Assembly (NCBI GenBank): GCA_963733375.1
Contig: CAVTDB010000013.1
Location: 1-64,000, forward strand
DNA length: 64,000 bases
Reading direction: 5' to 3'
Source: Nitrospirota bacterium
GTDB taxonomy: Bacteria; Nitrospirota; JACRHJ01
Shown here: one piece after another, positions 1,813 through 63,687 of the stretch
Numbering within the stretch: the first letter of the stretch is position 1
Layout: every line of letters starts with the position of its first letter
Notes under the pieces: generated by a model
Seen by the model: the letters and a program-made list of their open reading frames with translations, nothing else
Databases searched by the model: none
Told to the model about the DNA's origin: nothing
Made by a program: the position numbers and the translations under genes

Positions 1813-1935
1813 CATTTGAGCGCGTGAAGTAGGCTAAGGCGCGGTGGCGCCAATTCAGGGGATTCGGATTTCGCGGCCCGAGCTGGACCGTGCATTCTTC
1901 TGAACTGATGTCTCACCGTGTCGCGGAGTGGCGAG

Positions 1936-2530
1936 TATACTCCGCTCAGGTGAGAACCCGAAAATCCTTTGGGTCGAGAATGATCGGAAGTTGTCCGTGA
2001 CTCGGTCGCAAAAGGTGTCCCAGTTTTTCGGCACGTCGTCGCGCAGGAAGGTCAGCATCGCGCTGCTGAAATCCTTGAAGCTGCCGTAGCACTTGTTATG
2101 GGTGATGTGCTTGTGCATCAACCCCCATAGTCGTTCGATTGGGTTGAGGTGCGGGCAGTAGGCCGGGATGAAGTGAAGTTTGATCCGGCACTCGGGCCGC
2201 GCCAGCCATGCCTGAACCAATTTCGCATGATGGTATCTGGCATTGTCGAGGAACAAGTGAACCAGCCGCTTGCCCGGGTACATCGCTTCGATCGCCATCA
2301 ACAGCATAATCGTGCTCACGGCATCCACCGTCAGCACGTCCCGCATGGCGGTCCGGCCGGTCTCCAGGTCAATCGCGCCATGAACGTTCAGCCGTTGCCG
2401 CCCACTGGTCTGCGGCACAGCGATCTTGGTGTCCTTCGGCGCCCAGCAACCCACCGGCCGTACCGCATGCGTCGGATGGACCGCATCTGCGAACAACACC
2501 GCTTCGTCATCGGCCAGGTTGTTCAGCATG
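1936..2530 (-). mobile_element. IS630-family transposase, DDE domain only (5' part and left end missing); right end near TATA at 1936-1939
   Basis: VLFADAVHP, LFLDNARYHHAK, FIPAYCPHLNPIERLW (DDE_3); frameshift-corrected stop ~1946 followed by GCGGAGTATA, consistent with an IS630 end at a TA target. Confidence 0.88.
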
Positions 2531-2574: not shown

Positions 2575-5182
2575 TTATGGTGTCGGCAACGCCCGGAACA
2601 CGGCGGTTACTTTTTTAGCTTTCGTCTTCATCTCCATGAAAGCAGGGTTTTTGCTCCCGGTCAGGTCGCCCTCCCAGTGCGAAAACACATGTGACGAATC
2701 GGACGGCGTCGCGGTCAGCACCAACTCCTTGCCGCCCTCTTCCTGAAATACCGTGGAGTCCGCCGCGGCCGTTTGCGTGCCTTCCGCCTTGCTTTGCACG
2801 GTTACGCTGCCCATTGAACTATTATTTATGTTCACGGTGAGCGTGGCGATGTCCCTGCCGAACAGCACCGTCACCCCGCCGCCGCTGTCCGCAACGGCAA
2901 GGTCAGTCGCCCCGTCGCCGTTGAAGTCGTGCGCGGCGAGTGCGACCGGGTTTACGCCGGCGGAGAAATCCACCGGAAGATTAAAGCCCCCGGCGGCCTT
3001 GCCGGTAAGCAGGCTTATTGTGTTGTCGCTGGAGTTTGCGGTGACTATATCCGGCCTCCTGTCGTCCGTTACGTCCTGCGCAAGTATGCCCGCGGGGGAC
3101 GCGCCGACGGTAAAGCTTTTGCCCAGGCTGAAAATCCCCGAACCGTTATTCTTGAGGACTGTGGCCATGCCGTTCGTCTCGGAAATCACCAGGTCGCCGC
3201 CCGGGCCGGCCGCTATCGACGTAGGGTTGATAGTGCCCGCCAGCCTGGTTTTTGCCGTGCCGAACGTCCCGTCGCCCTTGCCAAAAAGGATGGAGACGCT
3301 GCCACTGCCGCTGCCAATGGCATTACCGTCGCTGCCTTTTCCGGAATTTGCCACGGCGATGTCCAGGATGCCGTCAGCATTGAAGTCTCCCACGGCCAGG
3401 GATACCGGCCCGTCTCCTACCGTATAAGGCACGTGTACGCTTGACCTGGATACGACCGTGCCTTTTCCATCGCCGAACGTACCGTCTCCGTTGCCCAGGA
3501 AGACGGTAACGGTCCCATCGTCCTGGTTGCAGACCGCGACGTCCGTATTGCCGCCCTTTTTGAAATTCGCCGTCTTTATCGCGGACGGATGGTTCCCGGC
3601 AATCAATAACTGGCGCGACTGGGCTGACTGGGGCAGTATGAACGTACCGTTACCGCCCGGCAGCAATATGGCCACGGTGCCATTCCCCGAGTTCGCCACG
3701 GCGAGGCCCGCCCTGTGGTCGGGCGCGGGGTTATTTGCGCTCGATAAGTTAGTAAAAACGCCTGATGCAATTCCACTGGGCGCGGAGATAGTGGAAAGCG
3801 AGGCGAAAGAGGCCGGAGCCCCCGGCGCGGGAGTGGTCACGGCCGAGCTGAAGTTGCCGAACATGCCGCTCATGTTGCCGAACCTGAACTTCCTGTTCAG
3901 CAAAACGGATATGTTGTTGCTCCCCCTGTTCGCCACCGCTATGTCCATTACCCCGTCATAGTCGAAGTCGTCCGCCAGGAGCGCTGACGGGTTCGTCCCG
4001 GCTATCAGGTTGACGGATGGTATGGTCGAATAGCTCCAGAAGCCGACGGAGGTGACGCGCGAGCGGTAAAGCGTCACACGTCCGCCCGAGTAGTCGCCGG
4101 TCGCCAGGTCGGGCAGGCCGTTTCTGTCGAAGTCACCCGAGGCGAGCGCCGCTGGAAAAGAGCCGCCCCGGAATCTCTTTGCGGCCCGGAAAGTCCCGTC
4201 GCCTCTGCCCAGGAAGACGGAGATGGAGTTGGCTGTGCTGTCGGCTACCGCGATGTCGATATTGCCGTCCCCCTCAAAATCCTTTAATACCAGCTCCTGC
4301 GGCCCGCCGCCCGACGCGAGACGGGCGGCTTTACCTGCGGGCGGTGTGCTGAAATTCCCAAAAGGCGTGCCGTGCAGTATTTTGATACGGTTACCTTTAA
4401 ACTCGCTGACGGCCAGGTCGAGGTTCCCGCCGCCGTTTAAGTCAGCCGCCTCCACCGCCAGCGGGTTCGCGCCGGTAGCGTACTTGACCGGGTCTTGAAA
4501 CGTTCCGTCACCGTTGCCCCGGAGCGTCGCCACCTTGTTATCGCCCCAGAGCGTCACGGCAATATCCGGCTTGCCGTCGTGGTCGAAGTCGGCTATGCAG
4601 ACGTGGCGCGGGTTGGTCCCGACGGGATAGGGGACGGCAGAGCCGAAGGTGCCGTCGCCGTTTCCTTGTGCCACATATATGTTTGTGGAATTAAAACACG
4701 CTACCACCAGGTCCTGGTGTCCGCTCGTGGTTAATTGCGCCGCGCGCAGGTGAACAGGGTTTGCGCCGAGCCCGGTTACTACCGGACGCGCCAATGTAAA
4801 CTTCCCGTCCCCTTTTCCCAGGTATATCCTGACCTCATTCGTCTGCCAGTCGGCCACGGCAAGGTCCATCTTGCCGTCTTCATTGAAATCGGCGGCAACT
4901 ATGGCTATCGGCTTGCCGCCGGCGCTTATGGTCCTAGCCGCCGCAAACCGGCCGCCGGGCTTCCCCAGGCGGACCACTACCTTGCCGTCTGTAATTTTGT
5001 CGGCCACCGCGACATCCGGTATGCCGTCTCCGTTGAAGTCCGCGACGGCCACCGAAGCGGGGTCCGTACCCGCGCTGAACCCCCCTGATTTGGCCATTGT
5101 CCATGAGACGGCCGACGCCCCGGTTGAGAGTCCAAAGGTGAAGTAATGCCAAAAGGGCGGTTATAAAGAGCCTTGATTTCAT
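2575..5182 (-). CDS. Secreted FG-GAP/VCBS-repeat beta-propeller protein with a C-terminal InlB-B-like repeat; signal peptide in another frame (frameshift ~5110-5140)
   Basis: More than 10 repeats of P.S/A.AVADFN.DG..D.AVA / V.V.LGNGDGTF; C-terminal LTATP...FSHWEGD....NP.......VTAVF; upstream MKSRLFITALLALL. Confidence 0.85.
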
Positions 5183-5234: not shown

Positions 5235-5264
5235 TTGAAGCAAAGTCAATCTTTAAGATATGAT
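5235..5264 (+). promoter_or_regulatory. Putative sigma70 promoter for the GNAT gene
   Basis: TTGAAG-N18-TATGAT. Confidence 0.4.
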
Positions 5265-5280
5265 ACACGGCAAAGAGCAT

Positions 5281-5355
5281 CCACCCTCATGCTCGGGCGC
5301 ATTGCATTTTTTCATCTTCGGAGCCTCCGGCTCCGTAATGTGGCCCACGGGTGGA
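5281..5355 (+). repeat. ~75-bp structured repeat, copy A (copy B inverted at 53716-53790)
   Basis: Ungapped alignment CC(A/G)CCCTCATGCTC(G/A)GGCGCATTGCAT...CATCTTCGG...GTGGCCCACGG. Confidence 0.85.
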
Positions 5356-5383
5356 GCGGGAACATGGAGGAAAGGCGCATCAA

Positions 5384-6504
5384 TGGAACCTGCTATATTT
5401 ACCGCCGACGGCGGACGCGAATTGTCCGACTTTATAAAGCTACCCTTCAAGCTGTACAAAAACAACCCTTACTGGGTGCCGCCGCTCATAATGGACGTGA
5501 AGTCCATCCTGAATAAAAAGAAGAACCCCTTCTTCCAGCACGGCGAGGCCCAGTATTTCATGGCCTACAACGGGCGGGAGCCGCTCGGGCGCATCGCCGC
5601 GATAATCGACCACAACTACAACAAGTACCACAACACGAAGGCCGGGTGGTTCGGGTTCTTCGAGTGCGTAAACGACAAGGATACCGCCAAGGCACTCTTG
5701 CGCACCGCCTGCGGCTGGCTGAAGGACAGGGGCATGGAGGTCGTTTACGGCCCGGCGTCGCCCACGTTAAACGACGAGGCGGGACTACTCTTGGAAGGAT
5801 ATGATAGTAGCCCCTATATAATGATGCCGTACAATCCGCCGTACTACCACGACCTTCTACTGGCGGCGGGCATGGAAAAGGCCAAGGATTTATACGCGTG
5901 GTACTTGAGCTCGTCCGTGCCGCCGCCGGAGAGGATATCCCGGATAGTGGAGCGGATAAAGAAGCGGGACAACATCACCATCCGGCCGCTTAACATGGGT
6001 GAGTTCCGCCGGGACCTGGAGATCGTTAAGTCGATATACAACACCGCCTGGGAACACAACTGGGATTTCGCGTCGATGACCGACGCGGAGCTTGATTACA
6101 CGGCGGAAAAATTAAAGCCAATCATCATGCCGGAGATGGTCCGGTTCCTGGAAATCGACGGCAAGACAGTCGCGGTATCCATTGTCGCGCCGGACATAAA
6201 CCGCGTCCTGAAGAAGATGAAAGGACACCTGTTCCCGTTCGGGATTTTCAAATTTTTCTACTACCGCAGAAAAATCACCGAAGTGCGGCTTATGATACTC
6301 GGCGTGCTCCCGGAGTACCGTGGCCGCGGCTTCGACGCGGTGCTGTACCACGAGATGCTCATGACGGCGAAAAAGGTAGGCGTAACCGGCGGCGAGCTTT
6401 CCTGGACCCTGGAGGACAACGACTCCATCAACAAGGGCATCGCGGCGATGGGGGCGAAGATTTACAAGAGGTACAGGGTTTACAAGAAGGATTTAACCGC
6501 CTGA
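5384..6504 (+). CDS. YghO-like GNAT-family N-acetyltransferase
   Basis: FIKLPFKLY..NPYWVPPL, GRIAAI, GWFGFFEC, MPYNPPYY, LGVLPEYRGRG, ELSWTLEDN; GGAGG upstream of MEPAIF. Confidence 0.85.
6310..6495 (+). repeat. GNAT 3'-end segment, copy 1 of a 186-bp direct repeat
   Basis: Codon-by-codon alignment with 8447-8632: 20 differences in 186 nt by hand count. Confidence 0.95.
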
Positions 6505-6549
6505 ATCGCGAGCGCAATTCACTCGCGCCCGCACAAAAGGGAGAAATTT

Positions 6550-8422
6550 ATGCACCGCAAAAGCTTGATGATTTTCTCATGTTTAATATTTATTTTTTCA
6601 TCCATCGCCGCTTTTGCCAATGAAAATTCTTCCTGGGAAGAAAAGTACAAAGGGGAGCCTTATATCGTTTTACTATCTGAAGAGACTGTTAACGTTAATA
6701 AAGATTTTTCCACTACCACCAATCTTCATATAATAAAAAAGGTCCAGAAGGAGGGCGCAAAGTCCCTGGGCGAGATTCCGGTTACTTACGATAAAGACTG
6801 CGAGGAGATCGAAAAAATAGAGGCGTATACCAGCACTCCGGATGGCAAGAAAATCAAATGCGAGAAAATCCAGGAACGTCAGCACTTCAGGCGAGTCAAG
6901 CATATACAGCGATGAGCGGGTAAAAATGATTACCATGCCCGAGGTTGTTATCGGAAGCACTATAGACTTGAAAATAACCAAAAAAAGAATCAAGCCGGTA
7001 ATAAAAGGAAATTTTTACGGCCATTTCTATTTCTCTTCTTCCGCCCCCATCAAGGAAGCCAGGTATGTCGTCACGGTCCCCAGGGATATGCATCTGGATA
7101 TAAAAGCCCTTAACTTTTCTCTCGAACCGAAGGTCGATGTCAGCGGCGATAATGTTACATATACATGGCTCCTGAATAACAGCGATAAAGTCGATAACGA
7201 AGAATATATGCCCTCTTATGAAGAAGTATATAAATCCATTTCGGTCTCGACATTAAAAGGTTGGAAGGAGATGGCGGACTGGAACTGGTCATTGTTTAAA
7301 AAGAATATCAGGGTTTCCCCTGAAATGAAAAAGAAAATCGCGGAAATCACAGCGGGTAAAACCTCCGTCGAGGATAAGGTCCAGGCAGTCATAGACTATA
7401 TAAGAGACGATTTCCGCTATGTCGCAATGAACATGAATTCGCATAATTATGAACCTCATCCCGCCGATGAAATCTTTAAAGATAAATACGGCGACTGCAA
7501 AGACCATACACTGCTTGCCATGTCGATGCTCTCTGAAATCGGCGTGAAAGCATGGCCCGTATTGCTCTCCAGCCGTTCCGAATTAAAACGCGATGACCTC
7601 CTGCCCATGCCGATCTATTTCGACCATGCCATCCTCGCGCTTGAAATAAAAGACAAGAAATATTATACGGATGTGCTTTACAGGGGTTACCGCTTTCAGG
7701 ACACGCCGGCGGCCTATGAAGGGAAAAAGATTTTTGTGCTTAACGATAACGGCGGCTACTTCACCGTCTTCCCCAGCCCGGATAAAGACGAAACGACAAA
7801 TATTTCCGAGGAGAATGTAAATATCAAGGATGACGGGACTGCCGTAATTGAAACCAAAATGATCTTTTCGAGGAATATGTCGGTAGAACTGCGGGAAGCC
7901 TTAAAGCGGCTGGCTCCCGACGATAAAGAAAAAATGTTCTCGATGATCGAAACAGAAGTCGTATCCGGCGGAAAACTCCTTGATAAAAAATGGGAAAATC
8001 TTGACGTCCCGTATACAAAGATAACCGGGACTATTCGCTACGAGAGCACCTGTTTTGTTCAGCGCATGGGGGATATGATGATGTTCGGAATGTCCCAGGA
8101 AAAGCGCGACCCGATGTTTACGGCTCCCAAAAGAACCTTTCCCGTCGTATTTCTCTCGCCGGTCGGGGAAGAGTCGCATGTTACTTACAAAATCCCCAAA
8201 GGATATGAAATCGAGGTACTTCCCAGGAAAATTTCCATGGATAAGCCGTATGCGGATTATCTGCGGGAATATAAAGAACAGGGCGGAGAGATTATCGGAG
8301 AAGAATTAAGAGGGTTCAAACAGTGCAGGATCCCCGTTAACCAGTATTCCGGGTTGCAGAATTTCCTCGATGAGATTGTCAGAAGTACAAATGAGAAGAT
8401 ATTAATTAAGAAAAAAATTTAG
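6550..8422 (+). CDS. Secreted DUF3857 + transglutaminase-like domain protein (frameshift ~6885)
   Basis: Signal peptide; IRYVA-like FRYVAM; YGDCKDHTLL (catalytic Cys); FDHAIL; YYTD; lower GC than flanks. Confidence 0.85.
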
Positions 8423-8446
8423 AAAAAATAAGTACTCTGCGTCCCG

Positions 8447-8635
8447 CCGGAGTACCGGGGCCTCGGCTTCGACGCCGTCCTATACCGCGAGATGCTTATG
8501 ACGGCGAAAAAAGTGGGGGTTACCGGCGGCGAACTTTCCTGGACCCTTGAGGACAACGACTCCATCAACAAGGGCATCGCGGCTATGGGGGCAAAGATTT
8601 ATAAGAGGTACCGGGTATACAAAAAGGATTTGTAA
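8447..8635 (+). pseudogene. Orphan 3' fragment (62 codons + stop) of the GNAT gene, copy 2 of the direct repeat
   Basis: PEYRGLGFDAVLYREMLMTAKKVGVTGGELSWTLEDNDSINKGIAAMGAKIYKRYRVYKKDL*; no start or RBS. Confidence 0.92.
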
Positions 8636-8646
8636 TTGGTTTTAGC

Positions 8647-9735
8647 TTAAGTTTCTTGTACAACTAAATTTCGCAACTCACTTTCATTTAAACCTATTTC
8701 AGCAGCAATCCTGCCTAAATCCCATCCTTCTGAATACATTAAACCGATTGCCTTTGGAATAAGATTTGGATATTCCATTGGAGGTTCAAACTTTTCACTT
8801 TTGCGCATGTTATTTTTGCTTAAATAAATATATGCTCGATGATACATTGCTTCGGAAATACAACTTACATCTTTTGCGCGCCGTATCAACGCGGCTAATG
8901 AAACTTTCCATCGACGTTTTAAGTCATAAAAGGGTTCCCAATTGCTCCAATTTATTTTTCTCGGACATTCAAGAATAAATGATTCATATGGTAAAAGAAA
9001 GGCACTGGCAAATGCGTTTGCTTGCCGCTCCAATTCTTTATTTCCTGGACTTATGTCGGCATGCATTAATAAATGCCCAAGTTCATGAGCTATATCAAAT
9101 CTAATTCGGCTTGCAGAATCTTTTTCCGAACTTAAAAAAATGCAAGGACGACCTTCAAACCATAAAGAAAAAGCATCTAACCGTGTAGAATGATTTGGGA
9201 TCCTGAAAACGAGAACTCCATGGTTTTCAACTAAATCTATCATGTTTTTTATTGGCCCCAAACCCCTTCCCCACTTACTTCTAAGACTCACAGCAAAATT
9301 TTCAATTTCCTCAATATTATTTATTGATTTATTTACAACTACTGATGACACATCTTCTTGAGGAAATTCAACGTACTGTTCTAAAAATGCTATTAATTCA
9401 ATTAAAATTGTGCCCGCGGAAAGCACTTTTCGTCTTTCAATTTGCGTTGCAGAGCGAAGGCTTCTGAAATGACACATATCCGTTGGGATAGTTTTAAGAT
9501 TATATTTACTACTCTTAAAAAATTCCAAAGGAATTCCGAGAGCTAAGCTTATCCTTGCCAATGTTTCTTTATTTGGACGTACTTTTCCTGTTTCAAATTG
9601 TGTAATTGCACTAGGAGAGAGATTGAGGCGTTCAGCTAGTTCCTTTTTTTGCAGGCCTTTAAATTCTCTCGCCAAAGTTAATCTTCCGGAATCAAATCGA
9701 TTCAGAATGGCTTGTACTTGTATATTATCTTTCAT
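8647..9735 (-). CDS. XRE HTH + ImmA/IrrE (COG2856) Zn metallopeptidase; RmrA-like antitoxin candidate
   Basis: RLTLARE..GL.KKELAE.L.LSPSAITQFETG HTH; FRSLR; RFDIAHELGHLLMH (HExxH); ERQANAFASAFLLP; WKVS; AT-rich. Confidence 0.92.
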   Translation of the reverse strand: MKDNIQVQAILNRFDSGRLTLAREFKGLQKKELAERLNLSPSAITQFETGKVRPNKETLARISLALGIPLEFFKSSKYNLKTIPTDMCHFRSLRSATQIERRKVLSAGTILIELIAFLEQYVEFPQEDVSSVVVNKSINNIEEIENFAVSLRSKWGRGLGPIKNMIDLVENHGVLVFRIPNHSTRLDAFSLWFEGRPCIFLSSEKDSASRIRFDIAHELGHLLMHADISPGNKELERQANAFASAFLLPYESFILECPRKINWSNWEPFYDLKRRWKVSLAALIRRAKDVSCISEAMYHRAYIYLSKNNMRKSEKFEPPMEYPNLIPKAIGLMYSEGWDLGRIAAEIGLNESELRNLVVQET

Positions 9736-10384
9736 TTGCTTTAATATCCTTTTTCTTTTTCAAAGTCACAGTGGCAGGCTCAATAGGAGCTTCCGGAAAA
9801 AGGTCCTCTACCAGGAGTCCGGAAGGATCATCTCCACCCCGTTTCCAAAGCAGATGGGTATGTTCCCACTGGGTTATTCTGCCGTTATCCTCGCTTATCG
9901 GGACGCAAAGGTAAATCGCACAGGCTCCGTCCTCATGGTTGCCGAGATGGGCAAGGACCAAGTTCAACACATCCGGCATGAGTTCTGCTATTTCAGGCTC
10001 ATCGGGTTCGAAACCTGGAATATATGGATGAGTATCGTTTGCCCGAGCCAACTCCCCAGCGGCACGATTATTACGAGGAAAACACTTATAAATATTTTCG
10101 CTGGCAAAACGGCCAACTCTATAGCATCCGATTTTACTGTATCCGACCTTCAGGCGAAAAGGCGTATCGCTCAGTATCTGGATTTTTTTCTGCACCAGAT
10201 TAGCCAGCTCAAATTTTATGAAATGATATATTTCGACGCCGAAGGTCGTGTTATTGCTTCCGGAAGTTTCATCATAGGCATCACACGCGCTGTTGTATCC
10301 TTCCCGTACTGCCTTAACGAAAGAATTTTTCACCTCTTTAGGGACGTCGCGCTCAATCAAAAGTTCGAACTCGTCTTTAGTCAT
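9725..10384 (-). CDS. Hypothetical protein overlapping the HTH-peptidase start; putative toxin partner
   Basis: 219-aa ORF with GGAGG RBS; 11-nt overlap with the downstream gene; acidic then basic C-terminal tail. Confidence 0.7.
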   Translation of the reverse strand: MTKDEFELLIERDVPKEVKNSFVKAVREGYNSACDAYDETSGSNNTTFGVEIYHFIKFELANLVQKKIQILSDTPFRLKVGYSKIGCYRVGRFASENIYKCFPRNNRAAGELARANDTHPYIPGFEPDEPEIAELMPDVLNLVLAHLGNHEDGACAIYLCVPISEDNGRITQWEHTHLLWKRGGDDPSGLLVEDLFPEAPIEPATVTLKKKKDIKANER

Positions 10385-11014
10385 TAAACCCTCCTGCTAC
10401 TATCAGCCCTGTTTATATCATCCGCACTGGTTACTCTAACCGTTACTTTATCCTACGTTCTGCTTAATTTCAACAAAAAAATGAAGTAGAAATGCTATTT
10501 CAGGAAGACGCAGACTAACACCATAATTAAAAAGTTCTATTTATCAATGATATACTAAAAAAATACCCCCTGAATAAAGAATATTTTTTGCCTTTATACT
10601 TAACTTTTCACCGCATATAGCGTGGTATGACTTAAAAAACAAGTCTGGCATGATGAACGACCGATGCTTTTAATAACCCTTCCTGCTCCGCGCGCCAACC
10701 TGTCATTTCTTGACGCTATTCACATATAAATGGCTTATTCGTCGAATTTTGATCCGGTATCATTTTCGCGCCATTTTGGCGGTCATCAGGGGGCTATTTG
10801 GGGGGTCTAGGGAGGGGTTTACGGAGGCTATGCGTTTTTAAATGGGCAGTGGCGGATTTTTCTATTATTATACAGATACTTAGGCCATAAAATCGACCAA
10901 TTTTGCGCCTTCACAAAAACTGCGGTTTGGGTTTTAGAAGTATCTGAAAATTAAGGATATTTTTTTGAGGAATCTCTGGATTCGCGAACCGGAGAGGAAA
11001 TATACCCTTTTTAT

Positions 11015-11729
11015 TTATTTAAAGATTGCCGCGATCCTTTTTTGAATCGCCTCCGCCGCGGCTTTCCTGTCCGGCGCATTTTTTATGGGCCTGCCGACGA
11101 CGATATAGTCCGCGCCGTTCTCGAAGGCCTCCTCTATATCCACCGTCCTTTTCTGGTCGTCGATATTCTTCACCGGGCGTATCCCCGGCGTGATAATATC
11201 AACTCATCGCCCACGTTTTCCCTTAAGGCCGGCGACTTCCAGGCCCGACGAGATTACTCCGTCGCAGCCGATTGCCAGCGCCCGCTTCGCCCTTGAAACC
11301 ACTACGGATTTCACGTCCGCCTTGAAGCCCAGGTCGTCTATGTCGTGTTGGTCGAGGCTGGTCAGCATGGTCACGGCGAGGATTTTCACGTCGTGCTTCT
11401 CCTCCACCGCCGCCTTTAAAATATTGTCGTTCCCGATGCACGGTGGCAAACGATATTCCCCTGCCTTTTAGCTGCTTGACGGCCGAGCGGACGGTTTCCG
11501 GGACGTCGAAGAATTTTAAATCCACGAAGATTTTCTTATCCCTCGCCCGCATCCAATCTATAAGCTCGTAATACCCGCCCGCCATGAATAATTCAAGACC
11601 CAGCTTGTAGAATTTGACTGAATTTCCCAGCTCTTCCACAAGCTTATGGGCATCTTCGACAGTCGGGACATCGAGGGCAAAGATTAGGCGCTCTTCCGGC
11701 GGAATATTTTTTTTGGACAGGTGGGCCAA
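11015..11729 (-). CDS. pyrF: Orotidine-5'-phosphate decarboxylase (frameshifted)
   Basis: [64 protein letters not shown]. Confidence 0.95.
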
Positions 11730-11839: not shown

Positions 11840-13294
11840 TTATCCCTCCTGCTGTATCGTGACGTAAAATGGCCGGCCGTCCCTGATGACATCCACCAGG
11901 ATATTCCTTCCACGGCGCATCTTGGAGTATTCGCGGTAGAAATCGGAAACGGTATTGACCTCTACCCCTTCAATCTTGCGCACCACGTCTCCGAAACGAA
12001 GCCCTCCTTCAAATGCCGGACAGCCGGGGACGACTTTGAGCACAAGCAGACCCTTATTCTCCTTAAGCCCAAGTCTTGCCGCAATCTGCTCGGGTATCTG
12101 CTGAAGGGTTATCCCGCATTGCATAGCCACGCGCTCGGCCGCAAGCGAATGCGCCTCCAGTTCGCCTAACATTACCGGCAGGTGTAGCCTCCTGCCGTCC
12201 CGCAGAACAAGCAGGTCCACCTTTTGCCCGGCTTTCGAGCTGTAAATTTTTTCCTGGAACGAGCGGTCGTCATTTACCGGCTGGCCGTTAAACTCCAGCA
12301 CCACGTCCCTGGCCTGTATGCCCGCCGCCTGGGCCGGGCTTCCGTCAAGGACGTCCGAGACAAGCGAACCCGTGACTTCCTTCAACCCAAGCCTGTCCGC
12401 AAGCCCCTCGGTCAGGTCCTGCCCGATAAGCCCCAGAAATCCGCGGGATATCTTGCCGTTCTTTATAAGCTGGGTCATCACCTCTTTTGCCCTGTTGATG
12501 GGGATGGCGAAACCTATCATCGTGCCGGGGCCCAGGTATGCGTTGTTTATCCCGATTACCTGGCCCTGGTAGTTGACCATCGGGCCGCCGGAGTTGCCGG
12601 GTTCGATGTTCAAGTCGGCCTGGATGAAATCAAAAAAGCCTATGTAGTTGGGGCCCGGAGGGCCGAATCCGGAGATTATCCCCGCCGAGGAGAAAAATTC
12701 CAGTCCGAGGGGGTTCCCCAGCGCTACGACCCACTGACCCATCTTCAGCCGCGAGGAATCCCCCATCTCGACCGGGATGACATTGAAGTCAGGCTTTATC
12801 TTTATCACGGCGACGTCCGAGAGCGGGTCCGCCCCGACTACCTCCGCCTTGAATCTGCGCTTGTCTTTCGTCTCCACGCGAAGGACCTGGGCGCCCTCTA
12901 TCACGTGGTAGTTCGTCAGGATAAGGCCGCTCTTGTCCACGAAGAAGCCGGTCCCTTCCCTGGTCTGGGCTATCTCTATCTCGCCCTTGCCGTGGCCCAT
13001 CTGGCCGCCGCCGCCCATTTCACCGCCGCCACTGCCGCCACCCATTCGCCGGCGCCGCCCCGGTTGCTGTTGCCCTCCATGCCTATAAAGTCCGGATGCC
13101 CCGCCAGGCCCTCGTTCTCGACCTTGACGAGCGAAGGCATCACCTTCTCTATAACGCCGGAGAAGTCCGGCAGCGCCCCCTTTTCAGCGGTGTATGCGCA
13201 ACTGGGGCCGCTGTCTCTCTGGAAAAAGGCAAACGATATTACCGCCACGGCGGCGACGAGCGCACGCTATGAATAATGCAGGTCTTTTATTCAT
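11840..13294 (-). CDS. htrA: DegP/DegQ (HtrA) serine protease with two PDZ domains (frameshifted N-terminus)
   Basis: GTGF, ILTNYHVI, DVAVIK, ALGNPLGL, PGNSGGPM; PDZ motifs SPAQAAGI..DV and PAFEGGL..GDV. Confidence 0.9.
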
Positions 13295-13883: not shown

Positions 13884-13901
13884 ATCGCACCTCCAAAAAC
13901 C

Positions 13902-14002
13902 GTTACTTTCTTTTCGAGTGAAAAGAAAAGTAACCAAAAGAAAAGCTGAACTGTCCGGCTTTTCTTTGGTTACTTTTCTTTTCTCCTGAAAGAGAAAGTA
14001 AC
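13902..14002. repeat. Double-hairpin intergenic repeat family R1, copy 1 (H1+H1rc)
   Basis: GTTACTTTCTTTTC..GAAAAGAAAAGTAAC CAAAAGAAAAGC-spacer-GCTTTTCTTTG GTTACTTTTCTTTC..GAAAGAGAAAGTAAC. Confidence 0.92.
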
Positions 14003-14076
14003 AGATTATAGATTATTATACCACCGGATGGGACTTCTTGACAAAGCGGCTCCGCGCGTGCTAAACATAATCGGAT

Positions 14077-15462
14077 ATGGATATTTCTACCTTAAAGCCG
14101 CTCTTAACCGAGCTTGTCTCCGGGATGGAGAAGACCGTGCCGTACGCCTGCGCCCTGGCCATGGAGACCCTGGGCGAGCGTGTGGTGGTGATGACGAAAG
14201 AGTCCCGCGTGGAGCCGCTCGACCCTTCACGGGGCGCCGTGCTGACCGTCTTCACGGGAAGCGAGTTCCTTGAGCACTCCACTTCCGATCTGACCCCCGA
14301 CGGGCTTAAAAAAGCGGCCAGGGCGCTGACAAAGGCCGCCGAATTCGCGGGGATAGGCGGGGATATCAAGATAGACCCGGGAGAGAAGCTGGAGAAGGAT
14401 TTTAATATCAAAGAGGAAATCCCGAACGCCTCCGTACCCTTGCGGGACAAGGTCTCAAGGTGCGCCGAATACCGGGAAAAGCTTCAGGGGATGGACCCTC
14501 GCATAGTGAACGCGGTCTCCGTCTATGCCTATACCAGGAACCGCGAACTGTACGTGAACCGGAACAAGACCCTGTTCCAGGATGTAAAACGGGGGCAGGC
14601 GGTGATACAGGCGGTGATGCGCGACGGCGACAATACTGCCCAGCTCCATGAGGGTGACTCCTGGCAGGGCGGGTACGAGAACTCGGTCATCCCGAAGGCG
14701 AAGTTCGAAGCGCTGGTCCGGGACTCAGGGCGCATCCTGAAGGCCCCCAGGCTTACACCCGGCGTCTACGACTGCATATTCTCACCGGAGTTCGCGGGCA
14801 TAACGGCGCACGAGTGCTTCGGGCACGGCACCGAAACGGACATGTTCCTAAAAGGCCGATCCCGCGCCCAAGAGTTTCTAAATAAGCCCGTGGGTTCGCC
14901 GCTTGTCAATATGTTCGACTCCCCCGCGGAGCAGGGCGCGGCGGCAAGCTTCTTCTTCGACCACGAGGGGGAGCTTGCTTCCCGGACGCAGATTATAAAG
15001 GACGGAGTTTTAGTCTCCGGCATTACGGACCTTAACTCCGCCACGCGGCTTGGCGTAAAAAGAACGGCCAATGGCCGTCGCGAGTCCTACGAGAGGAAGG
15101 CCTACGCCCGGATGACCAACACGTTCTTCGGCCCAGGCGTTGATAAGTTCGAGGAAATGATCGGCAGCATAGATTCCGGGTATTACCTCACCCACCCGAG
15201 TAACGGCATGGAAGACCCGAAAGGCTGGGGCATCCAGCTTGAGGGCTATCTCGCGGAAGAGATACGGGGCGGCAAGCTGACGGGCAACGTCTTTACCCCG
15301 GTTATCGTCACGGGTTATCTCCCGGATATGCTGAATTCCATCAGCATGGTCGGCGATAAGTCTACACTATTCGGCCTCGGCTACTGCGGCAAGGGTCACA
15401 AGGAATGGGTGAAAGTGACCGACGGCGGCCCGTATTTAAAGCTCAAGGCGCGCCTGGCATAA
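14077..15462 (+). CDS. tldD: TldD-family metalloprotease
   Basis: HECFGHGTE (HExxGH), FFDHEG, TANGRRESY...ARMTNTFF, CGKG...VTDGGP. Confidence 0.88.
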   Translation: MDISTLKPLLTELVSGMEKTVPYACALAMETLGERVVVMTKESRVEPLDPSRGAVLTVFTGSEFLEHSTSDLTPDGLKKAARALTKAAEFAGIGGDIKIDPGEKLEKDFNIKEEIPNASVPLRDKVSRCAEYREKLQGMDPRIVNAVSVYAYTRNRELYVNRNKTLFQDVKRGQAVIQAVMRDGDNTAQLHEGDSWQGGYENSVIPKAKFEALVRDSGRILKAPRLTPGVYDCIFSPEFAGITAHECFGHGTETDMFLKGRSRAQEFLNKPVGSPLVNMFDSPAEQGAAASFFFDHEGELASRTQIIKDGVLVSGITDLNSATRLGVKRTANGRRESYERKAYARMTNTFFGPGVDKFEEMIGSIDSGYYLTHPSNGMEDPKGWGIQLEGYLAEEIRGGKLTGNVFTPVIVTGYLPDMLNSISMVGDKSTLFGLGYCGKGHKEWVKVTDGGPYLKLKARLA

Positions 15463-18726: not shown

Positions 18727-19321
18727 GGTAATACCCTTTCATGCTCTTTTTAAGGGCGTCAATAGCCCTGAAAAGATGCGCCTTCACGGCGCCTTCGCTT
18801 ATCTTCAAGGCCACCGCTATCTCCGAGAGCTTCAGGTCTTCCTCGTGCTTCATCAGGAAAACCGCCCTCTGCCTCGGGGGCAGCGACAAAAGCGCTTTTT
18901 TAAGGGCCGCCCGGAGCTCTTTTTGCTCGAGCGGCATGTCCGGCCTCCCCGAACGGGATGTATCCGGCGCCTGCTCCACCGCGTCCAGGCCTTCATCGTC
19001 CTCATCCGGGGCGGCAAAAAAGAAAATCTTTTTAATGAACGTCTTTTTGCGTAAGAAATCCAGGCAGACGTTCGAAAGTATCCTTATAAACCATGTATAA
19101 AACGACGAGCCGCCCTTGAATGAATCAAGGGCCTTGTACGCCTTTATGAACGCGTCCTGGGCAAGGTCCTGGGCGTCGTCGGAGTTTCCGGTCATCTGCC
19201 GGGCAAACGCGAGCGCCCTCGGCATGTACTTCTTTACCAGGGCGCCGAACGCCTCGTGGTCGCCCTTCCTGGAAGCCTCCACCAGCTCCAGCTCGTTAAA
19301 CACCCTGGAACTGGCCGGCAC
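18719..19321 (-). CDS. ECF RNA polymerase sigma factor
   Basis: GD.EAF..LV..Y, DAQDLAQDAFIKAY, SFYTWFIRI..N.CLDFLRK, LPPRQRAVF...EIA..L.ISEGAVKAHLFRA; GTG start with AAGGA RBS. Confidence 0.93.
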   Translation of the reverse strand: MPASSRVFNELELVEASRKGDHEAFGALVKKYMPRALAFARQMTGNSDDAQDLAQDAFIKAYKALDSFKGGSSFYTWFIRILSNVCLDFLRKKTFIKKIFFFAAPDEDDEGLDAVEQAPDTSRSGRPDMPLEQKELRAALKKALLSLPPRQRAVFLMKHEEDLKLSEIAVALKISEGAVKAHLFRAIDALKKSMKGYYHG

Positions 19322-20095: not shown

Positions 20096-21417
20096 TCACT
20101 TTATCAATATAATACTTAAATCCATCACGTTCGTGCCGGTCGGGCCGGGCGAGAAAAGCCCCCCGGCCTCCTTGAAAAAATGATTGGAATCGTTATTTTT
20201 CAAGTACTTGACCGCTTCCAGGCCTTTGGTCTCGGCACCCCTGACAGTCTCCCCGTCCGCGAATGCGCCCGCGGCGTCCGTGGGGCCGTCGGTCCCGTCC
20301 GTACCCGCGAAAAGGGCGGACAGCCGCCTGTCCCCGTTAATCTCTATCGCGAACGCCAGCGCCATTTCCTGGTTCCGGCCGCCCAGCCCTTCCCCGCGGA
20401 CGGTGACGGTCGTCTCCCCGCCCGCGAGCAGACATGCCGGCACCGGGCGCCTCGCCCTCTCGTGCTGGGCGGCCTCGGCCGCCAGCCTCTTTGCGGCATC
20501 TCTCGCCTCGCCGGTCATCGACCCGTCCAGGATGTACGGCCTGTAGCCCAGGTAGCTCGCCACTTCGGACGCCTTGGCCAACGCGGCGGCGTTCGAGGCC
20601 ACCACGAAATTTACCGTCTCCCTGAAAACTTCGTCACCCGGCTTCGGGGTCTCCGGGCAGAAGTCCCGACGCCCCCTTCTGCAGGTGTACCCGGACGGCG
20701 GACGGGACCCGGTCGTATACCCCCCTTATCTTCAGTATCTCCATGGCCTGGAGGTATGTCGTCTCGTCGGGGGCGGTCGGGCCGGACGCTATCACGCCCA
20801 GGTCGTCCCCCACCACGTCCGAGATTATAAGGCTGACTACCTTCGCTGGAAAGGCCGCCTCGGCAAGCCTGCCGCCCTTGACGGCGGAGAGGTGTTTCCG
20901 TACGCAGTTTATCTCCCCTATGTCCGCGCCGGACAGCAGCAGAAGCCCAGTCACCTCCTGCTTGTCCTTCAGGCTTATCCCCTCGGCCGGGAGGACCATC
21001 AGCGAGGACGCCCCGCCGGACAGAAGGCACAGGACAAGGTCGTCCTCCGATGCGCTTTTTGCCAGCTCCATCACCCGGCTCGGCCGCAAGCACCCCCCTG
21101 CCGTCCGGGAGCGGATGCGACGCCTCGAATATCTTCGCGCGGGAAAGCTTCCCGCCGTGCCCGTCCTTGGTTACGGCGATACCGTCTTTAATAAGGCCGC
21201 CCAGCACGTCTTCGGCAGCCCTGGCCATGCCGTAAGCGGCTTTTCCGGCGGCGATTAGATATATATTATTTATATCGGGAAGCGAGTAGCGGGAGCCGCC
21301 AATAACGAGGGCGGCGGTATCGAGGACGAGGTTTTCCTTTACGCATGAATAGGGGTCTGCCGCGGCGACCGCGGCCCGGTATATCTGAATAAGAAGTTCT
21401 TTCGTCTCCTTATCCAT
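20096..21417 (-). CDS. Glycerate 2-kinase (MOFRL/GckA/TtuD family), frameshifted
   Basis: AAGKAAYGMA, EASHPLPD, LLSGGASSL, VRKHLSAVKGGRLA, ISDVVGDD, GGETTVTV, GGRNQE, GTDGTDG, TGTNVMD. Confidence 0.92.
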
Positions 21418-22810
21418 CAGCTCCGGGTCCTGGCCCTCATCTCCCGGACGGAACGGATGCGCCCTATCACCGCTTCCTTCGCCGTCCCGCCGGTATGGCG
21501 CCTGGCTGCCACGGAATTTTCCACTTTAAGGGCTTCGAGCGCCGAGCCGTCAGCCTCCGGATAGAACTCCTTCAGTTCGGCCAGGGTAAGGTCTTCCATC
21601 CCGCGCCCGGACTCAACCAACTTCCTCACGATTTTGCCGACTATCTCGTGGGCGCTCCTGAAAGGGACCCCGCGCTTTGCCAGCCAGTCCGCGAGGTCTG
21701 TCGCCGTGGAGTAACTCTCGCCGGCGGCGGCCTCCATCTTTTCTTTCCTTGGCTCCATGCCCCGGATTATATCCGTCATCGCACGAAGGCACCCGCGTAC
21801 GGTATCGGCGGCGTCGAACACCGGCTCCTTGTCTTCCTGCATGTCTTTATTATACGCAAGCGGCAGGCCCTTCATCACCGTGAGGAGCGCCATCAGGTCG
21901 CCATATACCCTGCCGGTCTTGCCGCGCACCAGTTCCGGGACGTCCGGGTTCTTCTTCTGGGGCATGATGGACGAGCCGGTGCAGTACCTGTCCGGCAGGT
22001 CGATGAAGCCGAACTCCCCGGTGGACCACAGGACCAGTCTCCTCGGAGAGGCGTGAGAGGTGCATCATTAAAATCGAAGACGCGGCCAGGAACTCGAGGT
22101 TAAAGTCGCGGTCGGAGACGGAGTCCATGCTGTTGTGCGTCGGCTCCTGGAAGCGGAGCATCAGCGCGACGAAGGCACGGTCTATCGGGATAGCCCGTCC
22201 CGGCCAGTGCGCCGGAGCCGAGCGGCATCCTGTCCCCCCTTTTGAGGGCGTCCGAGAACCTCCCGGAGTCCCTCTCCAGCATCTCGTAATATGCCATCAT
22301 GTGGTGGGAGAAGAGTACCGGCTGGGCGCGCTGGAGGTGGGTATATCCGGGCATGACGAGGTCTATATACCCCTCAGCCTTTTCCAGCAGCGCTTCCTGC
22401 ATCGCATCTATGAGGTTCACCACCCGCGCGCACTCGTCCTTCAGGTAAAGCTTTATATCGAGCGCCACCTGGTCGTTTCTGCTTCTGGCGGTGTGGAGCT
22501 TGCGTCCGGCGTCGCCGATCTTCTCAACTAGGCGGGCCTCGATGTTCATGTGCACGTCTTCAAGCTCCGTGCGCCATTTGAACTCCCCGGCCTCGATCTC
22601 GTCCAAGACCTCTTCAAGCCCGTGGACGATTTTATCCGCGTCCGCAGGCGATATTATCCCCTGCCTCCCCAGCATCCTGGCGTGGGCGAGGCTCCCGGCT
22701 ATGTCGTAGCGGTACAGACGCCTGTCGAAAGGAAGCGAGGCGGTGAACTCCTCGACGAACTTGTCCGTCGGGCCCTCAAACCTCCCGCCCCATGGTTTAT
22801 CTTCGGCCAT
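21417..22810 (-). CDS. argH: Argininosuccinate lyase (frameshifted)
   Basis: [65 protein letters not shown]. Confidence 0.96.
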
Positions 22811-24040
22811 TAAATTTTACTCCCCCGCCAATTACATCCTTCGCCGAGCAGCGCCCGGATGCGGAGCCTGAGCGCGCTTATCTTGATGAAGCCTTCCGCG
22901 TCGCTCTGGTCGTAAACCGCCTCTTCTCCAAACGTGGCGAATTCCGGGTGGTAGAGCGAACAGGGCGACTTCCTGCCCACGGCGTCGCAGTTGCCCTTAT
23001 ACAGCTTCACCCGCGCCGTACCCGTGACGTTTTTCTGGGTATCGTCTATCAGCTTCTGCATCAGCTCGCGCTCCGGCGCGTACCAGAACCCGTAATAGAC
23101 CAGCTCGGCGTACTTCGGCACGAGCGAGTCCCTTAGGTGCATGACCTCCCTGTCCAGCGTGATGGACTCCACCGCCCGGTGCGCCGCATGTAAAAGCGTC
23201 CCGCCCGGCGTCTCGTACACCCCGCGCGACTTCATCCCCACGAAGCGGTTCTCCACCAGGTCCACCCGGCCGACCCCGTTCTCTCCGGCCAGCCTGTTCG
23301 CCTCCGCCAGGAGTCTGCCCAGGGCTCATCCGCACGCCGTTAATGGCCACCGGGTCGCCCCTCTCATACTCCACTTCCACGTATGCGGGCCTGTCCGGGG
23401 CTTCCTCGGCCGGCACGGCCATGGTGTACATGTCCCTTGTGGACTCCATCCACGGGTCTTCCAGTATTCCCCCCTCGTAGCTTATGTGCAGGAGGTTCCT
23501 GTCCGTGGAGAACGGCTTGGATTTGGTCGCCGTGACGGGTATCCCGTGGCCCTCGGCATAGTCGATCAAGTCTTCGCGGGATTTGAAAGCCCACTCACGC
23601 CAGGGCGCGATCACCTTCACCTCGGGTTTAAGCGCATAGTACGTCAGCTCGAACCGGACCTGGTCGTTGCCCTTGCCGGTCGCGCCGTGAGAGACGGCGT
23701 CCGCGCCTTCCGCCTCGGCAATCTCTATCTGGCGTTTTGCGATAAGCGGGCGGGCGATGGAGGTGCCGAGAAGGTATCTGCACTCGTACAGCGCGTTCGC
23801 GCGGAGCATCGGGAAGACGAAATCCGATACGAACTCCTCCTTCAGGTCGTCGATATAAATCTTCGACGCGCCCGTCTTAAGCGCCTTTTCGTTCAGCGGA
23901 GCGAGCTCTTCCCCCTGCCCCAGATCCGCCGCGAACGCAATCACTTCGCACTGGTAATTCTCGATGAGCCATTTTATGATGACCGAGGTATCGAGCCCGC
24001 CTGAATACGCGAGGACTACCTTATTTACTTTCTTGTCCAC
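22810..24040 (-). CDS. argG: Argininosuccinate synthase (frameshifted ~23320)
   Basis: [55 protein letters not shown]. Confidence 0.96.
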
Positions 24041-24062
24041 GAAGTCTCCTTAGAACATAAGA

Positions 24063-24163
24063 CCGTACTTTTCTTTCACGGGAAAGAAAAGTACCAAAAG
24101 AAAGCGGGACTTTAAGCCCAGCTTTTCTTTGGTTACTTTCTTTTCCCGAAAAGAAAGTAACGG
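24063..24163. repeat. Repeat family R1, copy 2 (H1+H1rc)
   Basis: GTACTTTTCTTTC..GAAAGAAAAGTAC CAAAAGAAAGC GGGACTTTAAGCCCA GCTTTTCTTTG GTTACTTTCTTTTC.GAAAAGAAAGTAAC. Confidence 0.92.
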
Positions 24164-24164
24164 T

Positions 24165-24929
24165 TTATCTTACCCAGCCCGGCGGCGCGCCGGCTTTCCT
24201 GGCCTCTTCCGGGATGACCTGATTCATCATATTGTCCGCCTCGTCCATTTCCCTCTGCGCGTCGTCCATCCGGACTCTTGCCGAGCCCCGCAGGTCCTGG
24301 TACTGCGTCACCTGGTAATTGGAAACCGAAGGGTTCGCCCTGGTTGGCCGACGCCCCCCCGCCTACGCCCAGGAGCAGGCCGTTATAGCGGTTCCAGTCG
24401 TCGCTCGCGGCCTTGTAATTCGCCGCCGCTTCGTCGTATTTCTTCTTCCATTCCTCAATCCGCCTCGTCCACCAGTACTGGTTGTGGCCGTTGTTATCCG
24501 TAGTCTCGTGTGGAAAGACGGCGCGGGGGGGGCCACTAAATGCTCATCCCTGCGTTCGGGAGCCCTTTGGACATCGGCCCCTTTCGCGGGTAGAGGGAAA
24601 TTTTTCTGCACGGTCGCGTTCTCGTCGGCGACGACCTCCTGTATTTCCTTTATCTCGCTTTTCTGAAGGAGTATCGCGCCCGCGGGCAGCATTATCCGGA
24701 CGGAGTCTTTCATGATTTCATAGTTGTCGGTCTCTATCTTGCCGCCGCTTCTCAGCCTGATTATGTATTTTATTTTTTTCCTTGACGGGGCCGGCTGTCC
24801 GGTGGCGGGTTCGTCCTTCCCCTTGCCCAGGAGTTTGTCGACGAAACCCGCGATCTTGCCCTGTTCGGGATAAGCGGCGGCGGGGACCAGGACCGCAATC
24901 AACCCTAAAGCTACGATCAGTTTTTTCAT
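24165..24929 (-). CDS. Secreted hypothetical coiled-coil protein inside the arg operon (frameshifted)
   Basis: Signal peptide; joined frames give DNNGHNQYWWTRRIEEWKKKY... and end ...PEEARKAGAPPGWVR*. Confidence 0.7.
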
Positions 24930-43835: not shown

Positions 43836-43845
43836 GATTTACATT

Positions 43846-43945
43846 CTACTTTTCTTTCACGTGAAAGAAAAGTAGCAAAAGAAAGCGGGGCCTTTAATTC
43901 CGGCTTTTCTTTGCCTACTTTCTTTTCACCCGAAAAGAAAGTAGG
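43846..43945. repeat. Repeat family R1, copy 6 (H1+H1rc, CTAC/GTAG variant)
   Basis: CTACTTTTCTTTC..GAAAGAAAAGTAG CAAAAGAAAGC...GCTTTTCTTTG.CTACTTTCTTTTC..GAAAAGAAAGTAG. Confidence 0.92.
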
Positions 43946-54368: not shown

Positions 54369-54436
54369 TTTCCTTTACCAAACCGGAATTTTCTGGTAAA
54401 GTTTTAGCTTTCTTGCCTTTTTTATCATCTTATCAT

Positions 54437-54533: not shown

Positions 54534-54554
54534 GGTTTTTTTTAGTATAATTAA

Positions 54555-56876: not shown

Positions 56877-56882
56877 GAAAAG

Positions 56883-56982: not shown

Positions 56983-57038
56983 AGTTTAAGCTTTTCGCCC
57001 CAGCAGACCTGGGGCATTTTTTTCTGGGGGACCTCGGA

Positions 57039-63685: not shown

Positions 63686-63687
63686 AA

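Follow-up and report, generated by a model that had tools for sequence, protein, structure and literature searches.

Why should the last part of one gene occur twice, 2.1 kb apart, with unrelated genes between and behind the copies? The question is raised by a 64,000-nucleotide stretch from a Nitrospirota bacterium (contig CAVTDB010000013.1, positions 1 to 64,000; hereafter the window), in which the 3′ end of a gene for a GNAT-fold protein recurs as an orphan fragment. From left to right, the locus consists of the GNAT gene with its in-frame end (tip 1), a gene for a DUF3857/transglutaminase protein (cargo 1), the second copy of the gene end (tip 2), a probable RosmerTA defence pair, a conserved non-coding element, and pyrF. 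We consider the locus to be best explained as the scar of a 3′-end (tail) displacement at a chromosomal gene-exchange hotspot, a reading to which we give a probability of about 0.6.

The repeat is real and lies far above chance. In an ungapped comparison at an offset of 2137, positions 6296–6495 recur at 8433–8632 with 88% identity and no indels; a repeat search and BLAST both returned it as 199 nt at 88.4% identity (BLAST E 4e-69), and BLAST against the whole 2.39-Mb genome of the window (G000; 26 contigs) found exactly two copies. The left edge of the repeat is sharp. Over the 62 codons at 6310–6495 and 8447–8632, 20 substitutions separate the tips, 18 of them synonymous and two nonsynonymous (R>L at 6325 and H>R at 6349). 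An earlier note on this DNA, made from the letters alone, had arrived at exactly these numbers, and at the absence of indels, by hand count. The homology starts 14 nt before the point given there, at 6296/8433, and this additional segment contains four to five differences, with three nonsynonymous codons including G>C and L>P. As the note had also seen, the second copy has a stop codon of its own, TAA at 8633–8635; tip 1 is two codons (T, A) longer and ends in TGA at 6502–6504. Tip 2 has neither a start codon nor an upstream gene body.

The substitutions separating the copies are strongly biased. By the Nei–Gojobori method, the synonymous divergence (dS) between the tips is 0.65 and the nonsynonymous divergence (dN) 0.014 (S = 41.3, N = 144.7; dN/dS = 0.021), and as proteins they are ∼97% identical, with two of 62 residues differing. 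When 20 random substitutions were simulated with the observed transition share, a mean of 4.9 and a maximum of 13 were synonymous, and none of 100,000 simulations reached 18; the binomial P for the 18:2 bias is 1.2e-9. Such ratios support the view, already put forward in the earlier note, that the two tips, while diverging, were functional gene ends kept under purifying selection in separate lineages, and they exclude drift after a local duplication. A tandem duplication of the gene end, with divergence in place and later insertion of cargo, would explain why the copies stand in direct orientation on one strand at a distance of 2.1 kb. However, an untranslated copy should gather about three nonsynonymous changes for each synonymous one, against the observed 18:2 (P about 1e-9), and the dS of 0.65 between the copies is as large as or larger than the dS to other species of the genus (0.33–0.64), which makes this origin extremely improbable. 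Compared with six relatives, tip 2 holds a unique state at ∼13 sites, most of the differing ones: nine are synonymous changes and four are replacements (G>C, L>P, R>L, and H>R) at residues that are invariant in the six relatives. This pattern fits a working past followed by relaxed constraint or decay. We also considered and rejected a diversity-generating retroelement: the differences involve all four bases rather than being adenine-specific, and the local open reading frames (ORFs) contain no reverse-transcriptase domain.

The duplicated end lies at a site of frequent exchange. We compared the context of the locus in nine other genomes of the same Nitrospirota family and found the order FG-GAP, GNAT ... 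pyrF/HtrA, DJ-1, PmbA, PHP conserved, with variable DNA after the GNAT stop codon: five relatives carry different low-GC cargos, one carries an IS3, and three have no cargo (Table 1). Given these conserved flanks, differing contents, and empty sites, the GNAT–pyrF gap is a gene-exchange hotspot, defence genes included, which bears out the recurrent turnover of cargo that the earlier note had suspected downstream of GNAT. Tabulating orthologous loci, a comparison proposed in that note, thus revealed the variable downstream content; it revealed no orphan tip in any of the nine relatives. The flanks seem to have taken part in the exchange. Identity between G000 and its closest relative, G002, is 94–97% from position 12000 on, falling to 90% in the GNAT gene and 83% in the non-coding element and pyrF, which suggests that the flanks themselves were exchanged with more distant lineages. 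In core-gene-flanked defence hotspots or islands, housekeeping genes enclose variable DNA that is often defensive and contains no mobility genes. The locus resembles them in its variable cargo and in the elevated divergence of its flanking genes; descriptions of such hotspots usually include neither a displaced gene end that has been kept nor a dispersed non-coding element at the border.

Orphan tips are rare at this site. Among 170 loci (160 from two collection scans, some of which duplicate the relatives, together with the nine relatives and the window), searched with the G000 protein at E ≤ 1e-3, the window alone has a partial second C-terminal match, in a search that may overlook weak orphans where relatives are distant; ten further loci gave two matches each, and these are frameshift-split genes or full-length tandem paralogues. 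A search for a third tip or for tip remnants in 10385–11015 and in the gaps of the relatives (blastn with word size 7; tblastn with E up to 50) gave nothing above chance. With no orphan in the relatives, no third tip, and no polymorphic domain, the idea of a cassette stack made of Rhs/CDI-like orphan modules finds no support.

We envisage the following event. The ancestral order in the family would have been FG-GAP, GNAT, hairpin, pyrF, HtrA, and the resident state in this genus GNAT, tip, cargo, conserved non-coding element, pyrF, the cargo here being RosmerTA. A related lineage in which the hairpin had persisted would have supplied DNA with its own GNAT end, the terminator hairpin, and the DUF3857/transglutaminase gene. 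On the left side, this DNA would have recombined by homology inside the GNAT gene; on the right side, the join would lie immediately ahead of the final ∼67 resident codons and would have arisen either as an illegitimate (homology-facilitated) joint or by single-crossover insertion of a circular fragment carrying ∼200 nt of the tip. The gene would then end in the incoming tip, and the resident tip, moved 2.1 kb downstream and no longer translated, would be decaying. No dedicated recombinase would be needed, and we infer that none was present at the time of insertion.

That tip 1 came in with cargo 1 and that tip 2 is the resident one is the favoured direction, judging from what follows each copy: tip 1 is followed by the ancestral hairpin, and cargo begins directly behind tip 2, just as it does behind the GNAT gene of G001 and G002. 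The hairpin aligns directly with those of G006 and G010 and is missing behind tip 2, as it is behind the GNAT stop codon of G001 and G002, and from tip 2 through cargo and conserved element to pyrF, the window is colinear with the latter two genomes. The tips themselves, by identity profiles, dS, and phylogeny, leave the direction undecided. Tip 1 is nearest to G002 (dS 0.33) and has the two-codon C-terminal extension in common with it, tip 2 is nearest to G001 (dS 0.44), and both tips, like the whole GNAT gene, are more distant from G002 than the genome background is. In the mirror image of the event, GNAT, tip 1, hairpin, and cargo 1 would be resident, and the orphan tip would have arrived on a same-genus fragment made up of the final ∼67 codons of GNAT followed by RosmerTA, the element, and pyrF. 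This fragment would have recombined homologously on its pyrF side and been joined illegitimately right behind cargo 1. The grouping of tip 1 with G002, the closest genome overall, and of tip 2 with G001 keeps this version in play; moreover, tip 2, RosmerTA, the element, and pyrF have exactly the G001/G002 layout, and identity to G002 climbs sharply only at ∼11840–12000, which could mark a right-hand crossover. However, identity to G002 is only 89–92% in tip 1 and in the 5′ portion of the GNAT gene, against a background of 94–97%, so that tip 1 is not clearly vertical. The mirror image would also require two separate right-anchored events within 10–25 nt of the cargo 1 stop, and an independent sequencing run, described next, contains cargo 1 followed by a tip fragment and no RosmerTA at ≥85% identity. 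We regard the mirror-image event as possible but rather doubtful. The claim that an incoming tip with its cargo displaced the resident tip, made from the sequence at the outset, therefore holds as the best reading, with its direction favoured rather than proven.

Independent support for the link between cargo 1 and a tip came from X1, a soil run from which the assembled contigs of one study were aligned to the window at ≥85%; 8544–10650, RosmerTA included, remained uncovered, which does not show that it is lacking in the X1 organism. The relative present in X1 is 89% identical to the window in the GNAT gene, 91% across the junction from tip to cargo 1, and 95% in cargo 1. Cargo 1 is thus more alike between the X1 organism and G000 than core genes are, and it is younger than its flanks. 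After 8421, the X1 sequence has 25 other letters, 59 letters that match the last part of the tip, and then ∼92 that are unlike anything in the window, and the link from cargo 1 to the tip sits in one 2,015-nt contig at a depth of 16. The X1 orphan is shorter than that of the window (at most ∼84 nt, with an apparent start ∼116 nt later), which hints at a different right-hand joint; a join that lacks site specificity on the right would be expected to leave orphans of differing length, as in G000 and X1. Among the joints reported for X1, none skips the 2,137 bases. Of two further runs, X2 gave no alignment to the window, and X3 gave short pieces in 4800–5061 only.

Since X1 holds cargo 1 and then a tip fragment, an assembly artefact is improbable. 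Such an artefact would have arisen by concatenation of two strain variants, one with cargo 1 and one with RosmerTA, into a false second tip. The assembly does invite the suspicion, with its many single-base indel errors and its contamination, and a chimeric contig of G002 yields a very similar “orphan tip” at the end of its FtsX gene (locus L218, at 13940–14559 and 19013–19220). There, 207 nt are duplicated at 94.7% identity with eight synonymous and three nonsynonymous changes, and between the copies lie ∼600 A, then 17 G, and then a 4.4-kb segment that is found elsewhere in G000 and G001. We rejected this case as a second displaced tail on account of the obvious chimeric join in the contig. 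At the GNAT locus, in contrast, the junction carries no homopolymer or other junk, a chimeric join would require overlap of the end of cargo 1 with the GNAT tip, and replacements at invariant residues in the orphan point to a real pseudogene rather than to the working gene of a second strain.

Several points weigh against a tail displacement with incoming tip 1. G000 is an error-prone metagenome-assembled genome, 81% complete with 5.2% contamination and many frameshift-split genes; the X1 support consists of contigs assembled in a single study and aligned at that ≥85% threshold; and the FtsX case demonstrates that a faulty join can mimic a displaced tail. The mirror-image event, with tip 2 and RosmerTA incoming and an anchor on the pyrF side, would fit most of the data. 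No donor and no pre-insertion genome was found: a metagenome scan for strain-level relatives gave proteins at most 71% identical, and scans of genome collections gave the same family genomes. Furthermore, cargo 1 stops on the right at one and the same position (8421) in G000 and X1, as would also be the case if an element had a defined end there or if one old event had been followed by a deletion. Finally, an illegitimate joint predicts microhomology, visible only with donor sequence.

The signature itself has a well-known counterpart. At the ends of e14 in E. coli K-12, we measured an icd/icdC repeat of 165 nt at 92.7% identity, with 10 synonymous and two nonsynonymous changes and a sharp left boundary (in the window, 200 nt, 88%, and 18:2). 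As with e14 and phage 21 at icd, the last ∼55–67 codons occur twice as direct repeats around an insert, the in-frame copy is a diverged replacement with mostly synonymous changes, and the orphan keeps its stop codon. When e14 is lost between the icd repeats, a chimeric icd is restored (PMC13626634). Here too, recombination between the two tips might plausibly lead to excision.

This likeness raises the alternative that the locus is the remnant of an element of the e14 type. A tyrosine or serine recombinase would have acted on an attP inside a captured GNAT 3′ end and integrated the element at a core near 6296, the tip would have been replaced as at icd, and the integrase and most genes would later have been lost, or a non-autonomous element would have been mobilised in trans. 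The window signature nearly equals that at icd/icdC, down to the orphan at the far end of the element; the left boundary is sharp here too, and G000 and X1 agree on the right end of cargo 1. However, e14 is a 15-kb prophage with intE and xisE, whereas the insert in the window is a single gene of 1.9 kb without a recombinase. Pfam found no recombinase domain in the ORFs of 5260–10384, and in a whole-genome search, the nearest PF00589 integrase lay at contig position 74037, ∼63 kb off; the 64-kb window contains no tRNA or tmRNA, and no Rfam family was found as an integration target. At the left edge, e14 has 11 identical core bases against five followed by a mismatch here, although decay of the orphan could have erased a core. 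Together with the later apparent start of the X1 orphan and with three further tail duplications in G000, which affect unrelated genes over differing lengths with no integrases nearby, these differences lead us to consider an e14-type origin unlikely.

Displacement of gene ends without an integrase has also been described at polymorphic toxin loci. C-terminal displacement and orphan arrays were reportedly described by Jackson et al. 2009 (PMC2935791), as cited in Kirchberger et al. 2017. At Rhs, CdiA, and Vibrio type VI secretion system (T6SS) effector–immunity loci, incoming modules displace old 3′ parts, for which homology-facilitated illegitimate recombination was proposed (Kirchberger et al. 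2017, PMC5361080). Those loci and the one described here share a module anchored on a conserved upstream gene part, an old 3′ part that is kept downstream, and the lack of an integrase. They differ in that the former have polymorphic toxin tips with immunity genes, whereas the window tips are near-identical, the cargo is unrelated to the anchor, and there are no immunity genes; moreover, their arrays recur among strains, whereas the orphan here was seen in none of the nine relatives and, outside the window, as the piece of tip that follows cargo 1 in X1. Homology-facilitated illegitimate recombination in transformable bacteria is said to have been reported by De Vries & Wackernagel 2002, Prudhomme et al. 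2002, and Meier & Wackernagel 2003, all cited in PMC5361080. In that process, as in the event proposed here, a single homologous anchor brings in the foreign DNA next to it, and the opposite end is joined without homology; the difference is that it is known from laboratory crosses in which recipient DNA is usually lost, whereas the recipient tip was retained here. PMC3240628 likewise treats the process in transformable bacteria. Because e14/icd shows the same signature and a displacement model has been published for Rhs/T6SS loci, we take the locus, by analogy, to be a recombination scar of an already known kind and not the undescribed system that the earlier note had seen in it.

Similar scars occur elsewhere in the same genome. 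Comparison of G000 with itself revealed three more diverged gene-end duplications around low-GC inserts (Table 1). In the AMP-binding enzyme gene, the duplicated unit comprises the last 33 codons and 45 nt downstream, and it flanks a 1.26-kb insert (GC 0.41) encoding a pentapeptide-repeat protein. On contig 26, both copies end in the 43-nt motif that opens the non-coding element next to pyrF. The phosphoglucomutase/phosphomannomutase fragment has been left 443 nt further downstream; the low-GC genes that come after it include one for a deoxynucleoside-kinase fusion. Since these cases concern different genes and different lengths and involve no integrases, a generic homology-anchored process of tail displacement fits better than a dedicated one.

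On its right, the variable cargo is bordered by a recurring sequence. The 43-nt motif is 93% conserved in G000, G001, G002, and G009, which belong to two genera, and the DNA to its left is unrelated among them. In the three same-genus genomes (G000, G001, and G002), it opens a non-coding stretch of ∼350 nt that reaches the pyrF stop; G009 has the motif alone, and the empty site of G010 has neither motif nor element. A profile built from nine copies of the element family (∼270–350 nt) gave 27 matches in G000 (E < 1e-3), ∼20 of them near full length. Similarity starts at the same 5′ end in nine of 10 aligned copies. The kilobase upstream of that end has a GC content below 0.45 in 15 of the 27 matches, against two of 27 for the kilobase downstream and a genome average of 0.554. 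The cargo that abuts the 5′ end is often defensive: in G000, it includes RosmerTA, VapB/VapC, an AIPR abortive-infection protein, an MNT nucleotidyltransferase, and a DUF4760 protein; in the relatives, it includes a restriction-modification pair, bSEFIR, and a methylase/HNH/Vsr set. Cargo modules are also separated by the lone 43-nt motif, in G009 at one place and on contig 26 at two, and a diverged copy of it lies just before the poly-A tract of the chimeric G002 contig.

The element had no Rfam match and no match in viral contigs, and none of its copies was seen beside an integrase. The exact 5′ motif pattern was not found outside this small clade in a collection of species-representative genomes, and where the GNAT-locus cassettes begin on the left, a profile search (E up to 5) turned up no further copy of the motif. 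RNAalifold on five copies predicted a weak consensus fold (−21 kcal/mol over 398 columns, with an unfavourable covariation term), including a hairpin with a few compensatory pairs from only two lineages. The element may serve as a site of recombination or docking, or it may be the conserved terminus of a mobile unit; a transposable element with a preference for AT-rich DNA is a third possibility. Tentatively, and with little confidence, the GNAT locus might be one docking site of a dispersed cassette platform that is integrase-free or served in trans. In the detailed form of this idea, also a speculative one, the motif would set the right cassette border and homology to the neighbouring gene end the left, displaced tails being a by-product.

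For an uncultured phylum of soil bacteria, the locus offers a clean, quantified case of foreign genes that use an ordinary housekeeping-type gene end as their landing pad and have no integrase near them. The three further displaced tails in G000 suggest that defence hotspots quite generally gain genes by tail displacement, a route that is under-reported and then not peculiar to toxin loci or prophages. An orphan tip is, moreover, a datable footprint that can be used to order insertion events, and the border element could indicate a new cassette-docking mechanism if it is indeed a recombination site. The value of the case lies in its quantification, in the recurrence of scars within one genome, and in the unexplained border element.

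Table 1. Features of the GNAT–pyrF locus, of further gene-end duplications and element copies in G000, and of the corresponding site in the nine relatives
Feature	Genome or contig	Position	Strand	Basis or content
Anchor gene, 373-aa tandem-GNAT-fold protein	Window	5383..6504	+	Start inferred from relatives; ORF open from 5260
Tip 1 (copy 1), in-frame GNAT 3′ end	Window	6296..6495	+	Repeat and ungapped comparison; covers C-terminal GNAT domain
Terminator-like hairpin remnant after tip 1	Window	6505..6535	.	Homologous to native GNAT–pyrF intergenic hairpin of relatives with empty site
Cargo 1, secreted DUF3857 + Transglut_core protein	Window	6550..8422	+	Pfam; two frames here, 6550–6915 and 6842–8422
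Tip 2, orphan (displaced GNAT 3′ end with own TAA)	Window	8433..8635	+	Repeat, BLAST; begins 10 nt past cargo 1 stop
RmrA, HTH + M78 zinc peptidase of RosmerTA defence/toxin-antitoxin pair	Window	8647..9735	−	PADLOC RmrA E 1.9e-94; Pfam Peptidase_M78, HTH_3
Putative RmrT partner, 219 aa	Window	9725..10384	−	Upstream of RmrA, 11-nt overlap; assigned mainly by position
Conserved non-coding element, right border of variable cargo	Window	10666..11014	+	43-nt 5′ motif at 10666–10708
pyrF, conserved right flank, convergent with GNAT gene	Window	11015..11729	−	Pfam OMPdecase on three ORF pieces; three frames here
AMP-binding enzyme gene (L231), duplicated end	G000, contig 17	11945–12087 vs 10538–10681		144 nt, 90% identity; 4 synonymous + 2 nonsynonymous codons
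Contig 26 locus (L228), duplicated end	G000, contig 26	217661–217808 vs 218433–218580		149 nt, 93% identity; either side of MNT-type nucleotidyltransferase gene
Phosphoglucomutase/phosphomannomutase gene (L232), duplicated part	G000, contig 1	68505–68611 vs 69054–69160		107-nt internal fragment, 92% identity
Element copies (among others)	G000	Contig 2 49808–50076; contig 26 70576–71138, 216907–217456; contig 3 276778–277047; contig 1 59606–59877		
After GNAT stop	G010			No cargo; 28 nt with shared terminator hairpin
After GNAT stop	G007			No cargo; 16 nt to HtrA
After GNAT stop	G008			No cargo; pyrF of another type directly
After GNAT stop	G006			IS3
After GNAT stop	G001			Type II methyltransferase fragment + restriction enzyme
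After GNAT stop	G002			Membrane protein
After GNAT stop	G009			Unknown ORF + DUF4160/DUF2442 pair
After GNAT stop	G003 (locus L028)	7463–9862		Low-GC cluster: radical-SAM/SPASM enzyme, DUF483-like protein, UPF0150 (HicB-like) protein
After GNAT stop	G005			Unknown low-GC ORFs

The anchor protein belongs to the GNAT superfamily by its predicted fold. An AlphaFold2 model from a 21-sequence alignment (pLDDT 90.6) had as its best Foldseek match 5kf2, a tandem-GNAT glucosamine N-acetyltransferase (E 1.7e-14), and also matched the tandem-GNAT structures 7q3a and 2wpw (with 5kf2, E 1e-13 to 1e-14). The model thus has a tandem GNAT architecture with the acetyl-CoA-binding core in the C-terminal domain, and acetyltransferase activity is predicted. 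By sequence, the family label given at the outset fares less well: the Pfam Acetyltransf_1 score of 20.2 bits is below the cut-off of 20.7, and phmmer against the PDB gave a marginal E of 0.34. Orthologues are present in 10 of 11 family relatives at 60–92% identity.

Each tip is followed by lower-GC cargo, as had been noticed from the letters: GC is 0.42–0.47 over 6400–8400 (cargo 1) and 0.35–0.37 over 8600–9600 (RmrA), against 0.55–0.63 in the flanks. Pfam agreed with the first assignment of both cargos (DUF3857 with Transglut_core; HTH_3 with Peptidase_M78). Intact homologues of cargo 1, 628–634 aa long and 53–57% identical, occur in other, lower-GC Nitrospirota, and cargo 1 was not found in the 11 family relatives. 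RmrA and its overlapping partner are a probable RosmerTA pair with a predicted defence role. They resemble the system as modelled in PADLOC in the strong RmrA match and the small overlapping upstream partner and differ from it in the RmrT match, which is weak (E 6e-4); the putative RmrT belongs to no Pfam family, and RmrA also matched the NCBIfam spr1629-family antitoxin model, under its cut-off.

Several conserved genes of the window are split into two or three frames: besides cargo 1 and pyrF, these are the genes for glycerate kinase (20096–21417), argH (21417–22810), and argG (22810–24040). In X1, cargo 1 has one base fewer at 6878, so its frameshift is probably an assembly error, and single-base indels between X1 and the window in pyrF (11196, 11233, 11401, 11405, and 11436) suggest errors there as well. 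The assembly is probably indel-prone, with many homopolymer-type errors, and the split genes are probably intact rather than pseudogenes.

An integron cassette array was considered and rejected, as there is no integrase nearby and there are no inverted-repeat sites at the cassette borders; the repeat search, which used no attC-specific model and did not scan attC itself, found no convincing integron-like or inverted-repeat sites there. The statement in the earlier note that integrases, transposases, and tRNAs are lacking nearby holds for the first and last of these. A 224-aa fragment of an IS630-family (DDE_3) transposase, covering the C-terminal half alone of the NCBIfam model, lies 3.8 kb upstream of the locus (1855–2529, minus strand), beyond the conserved FG-GAP gene and outside the hotspot. 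Elsewhere in G000, three tyrosine-recombinase genes stand in a row on contig 17 (49560–51914), and on contig 3 (132411–160025), a repeat of ∼160 nt occurs in at least seven copies, in both orientations and 1–9 kb apart. The latter begins beside a tyrosine recombinase gene (132685–133116) and may represent stacked integrated elements. An intergenic repeat family of ∼105 nt is scattered in both orientations over the window (13896–14009, 24059–24168, 43845–43945, 54436–54534, 56879–56994, and 63679–63784) and many other contigs; one copy gives 208 BLAST matches genome-wide, and with its internal inverted symmetry, the family resembles a miniature transposable or REP-type element.

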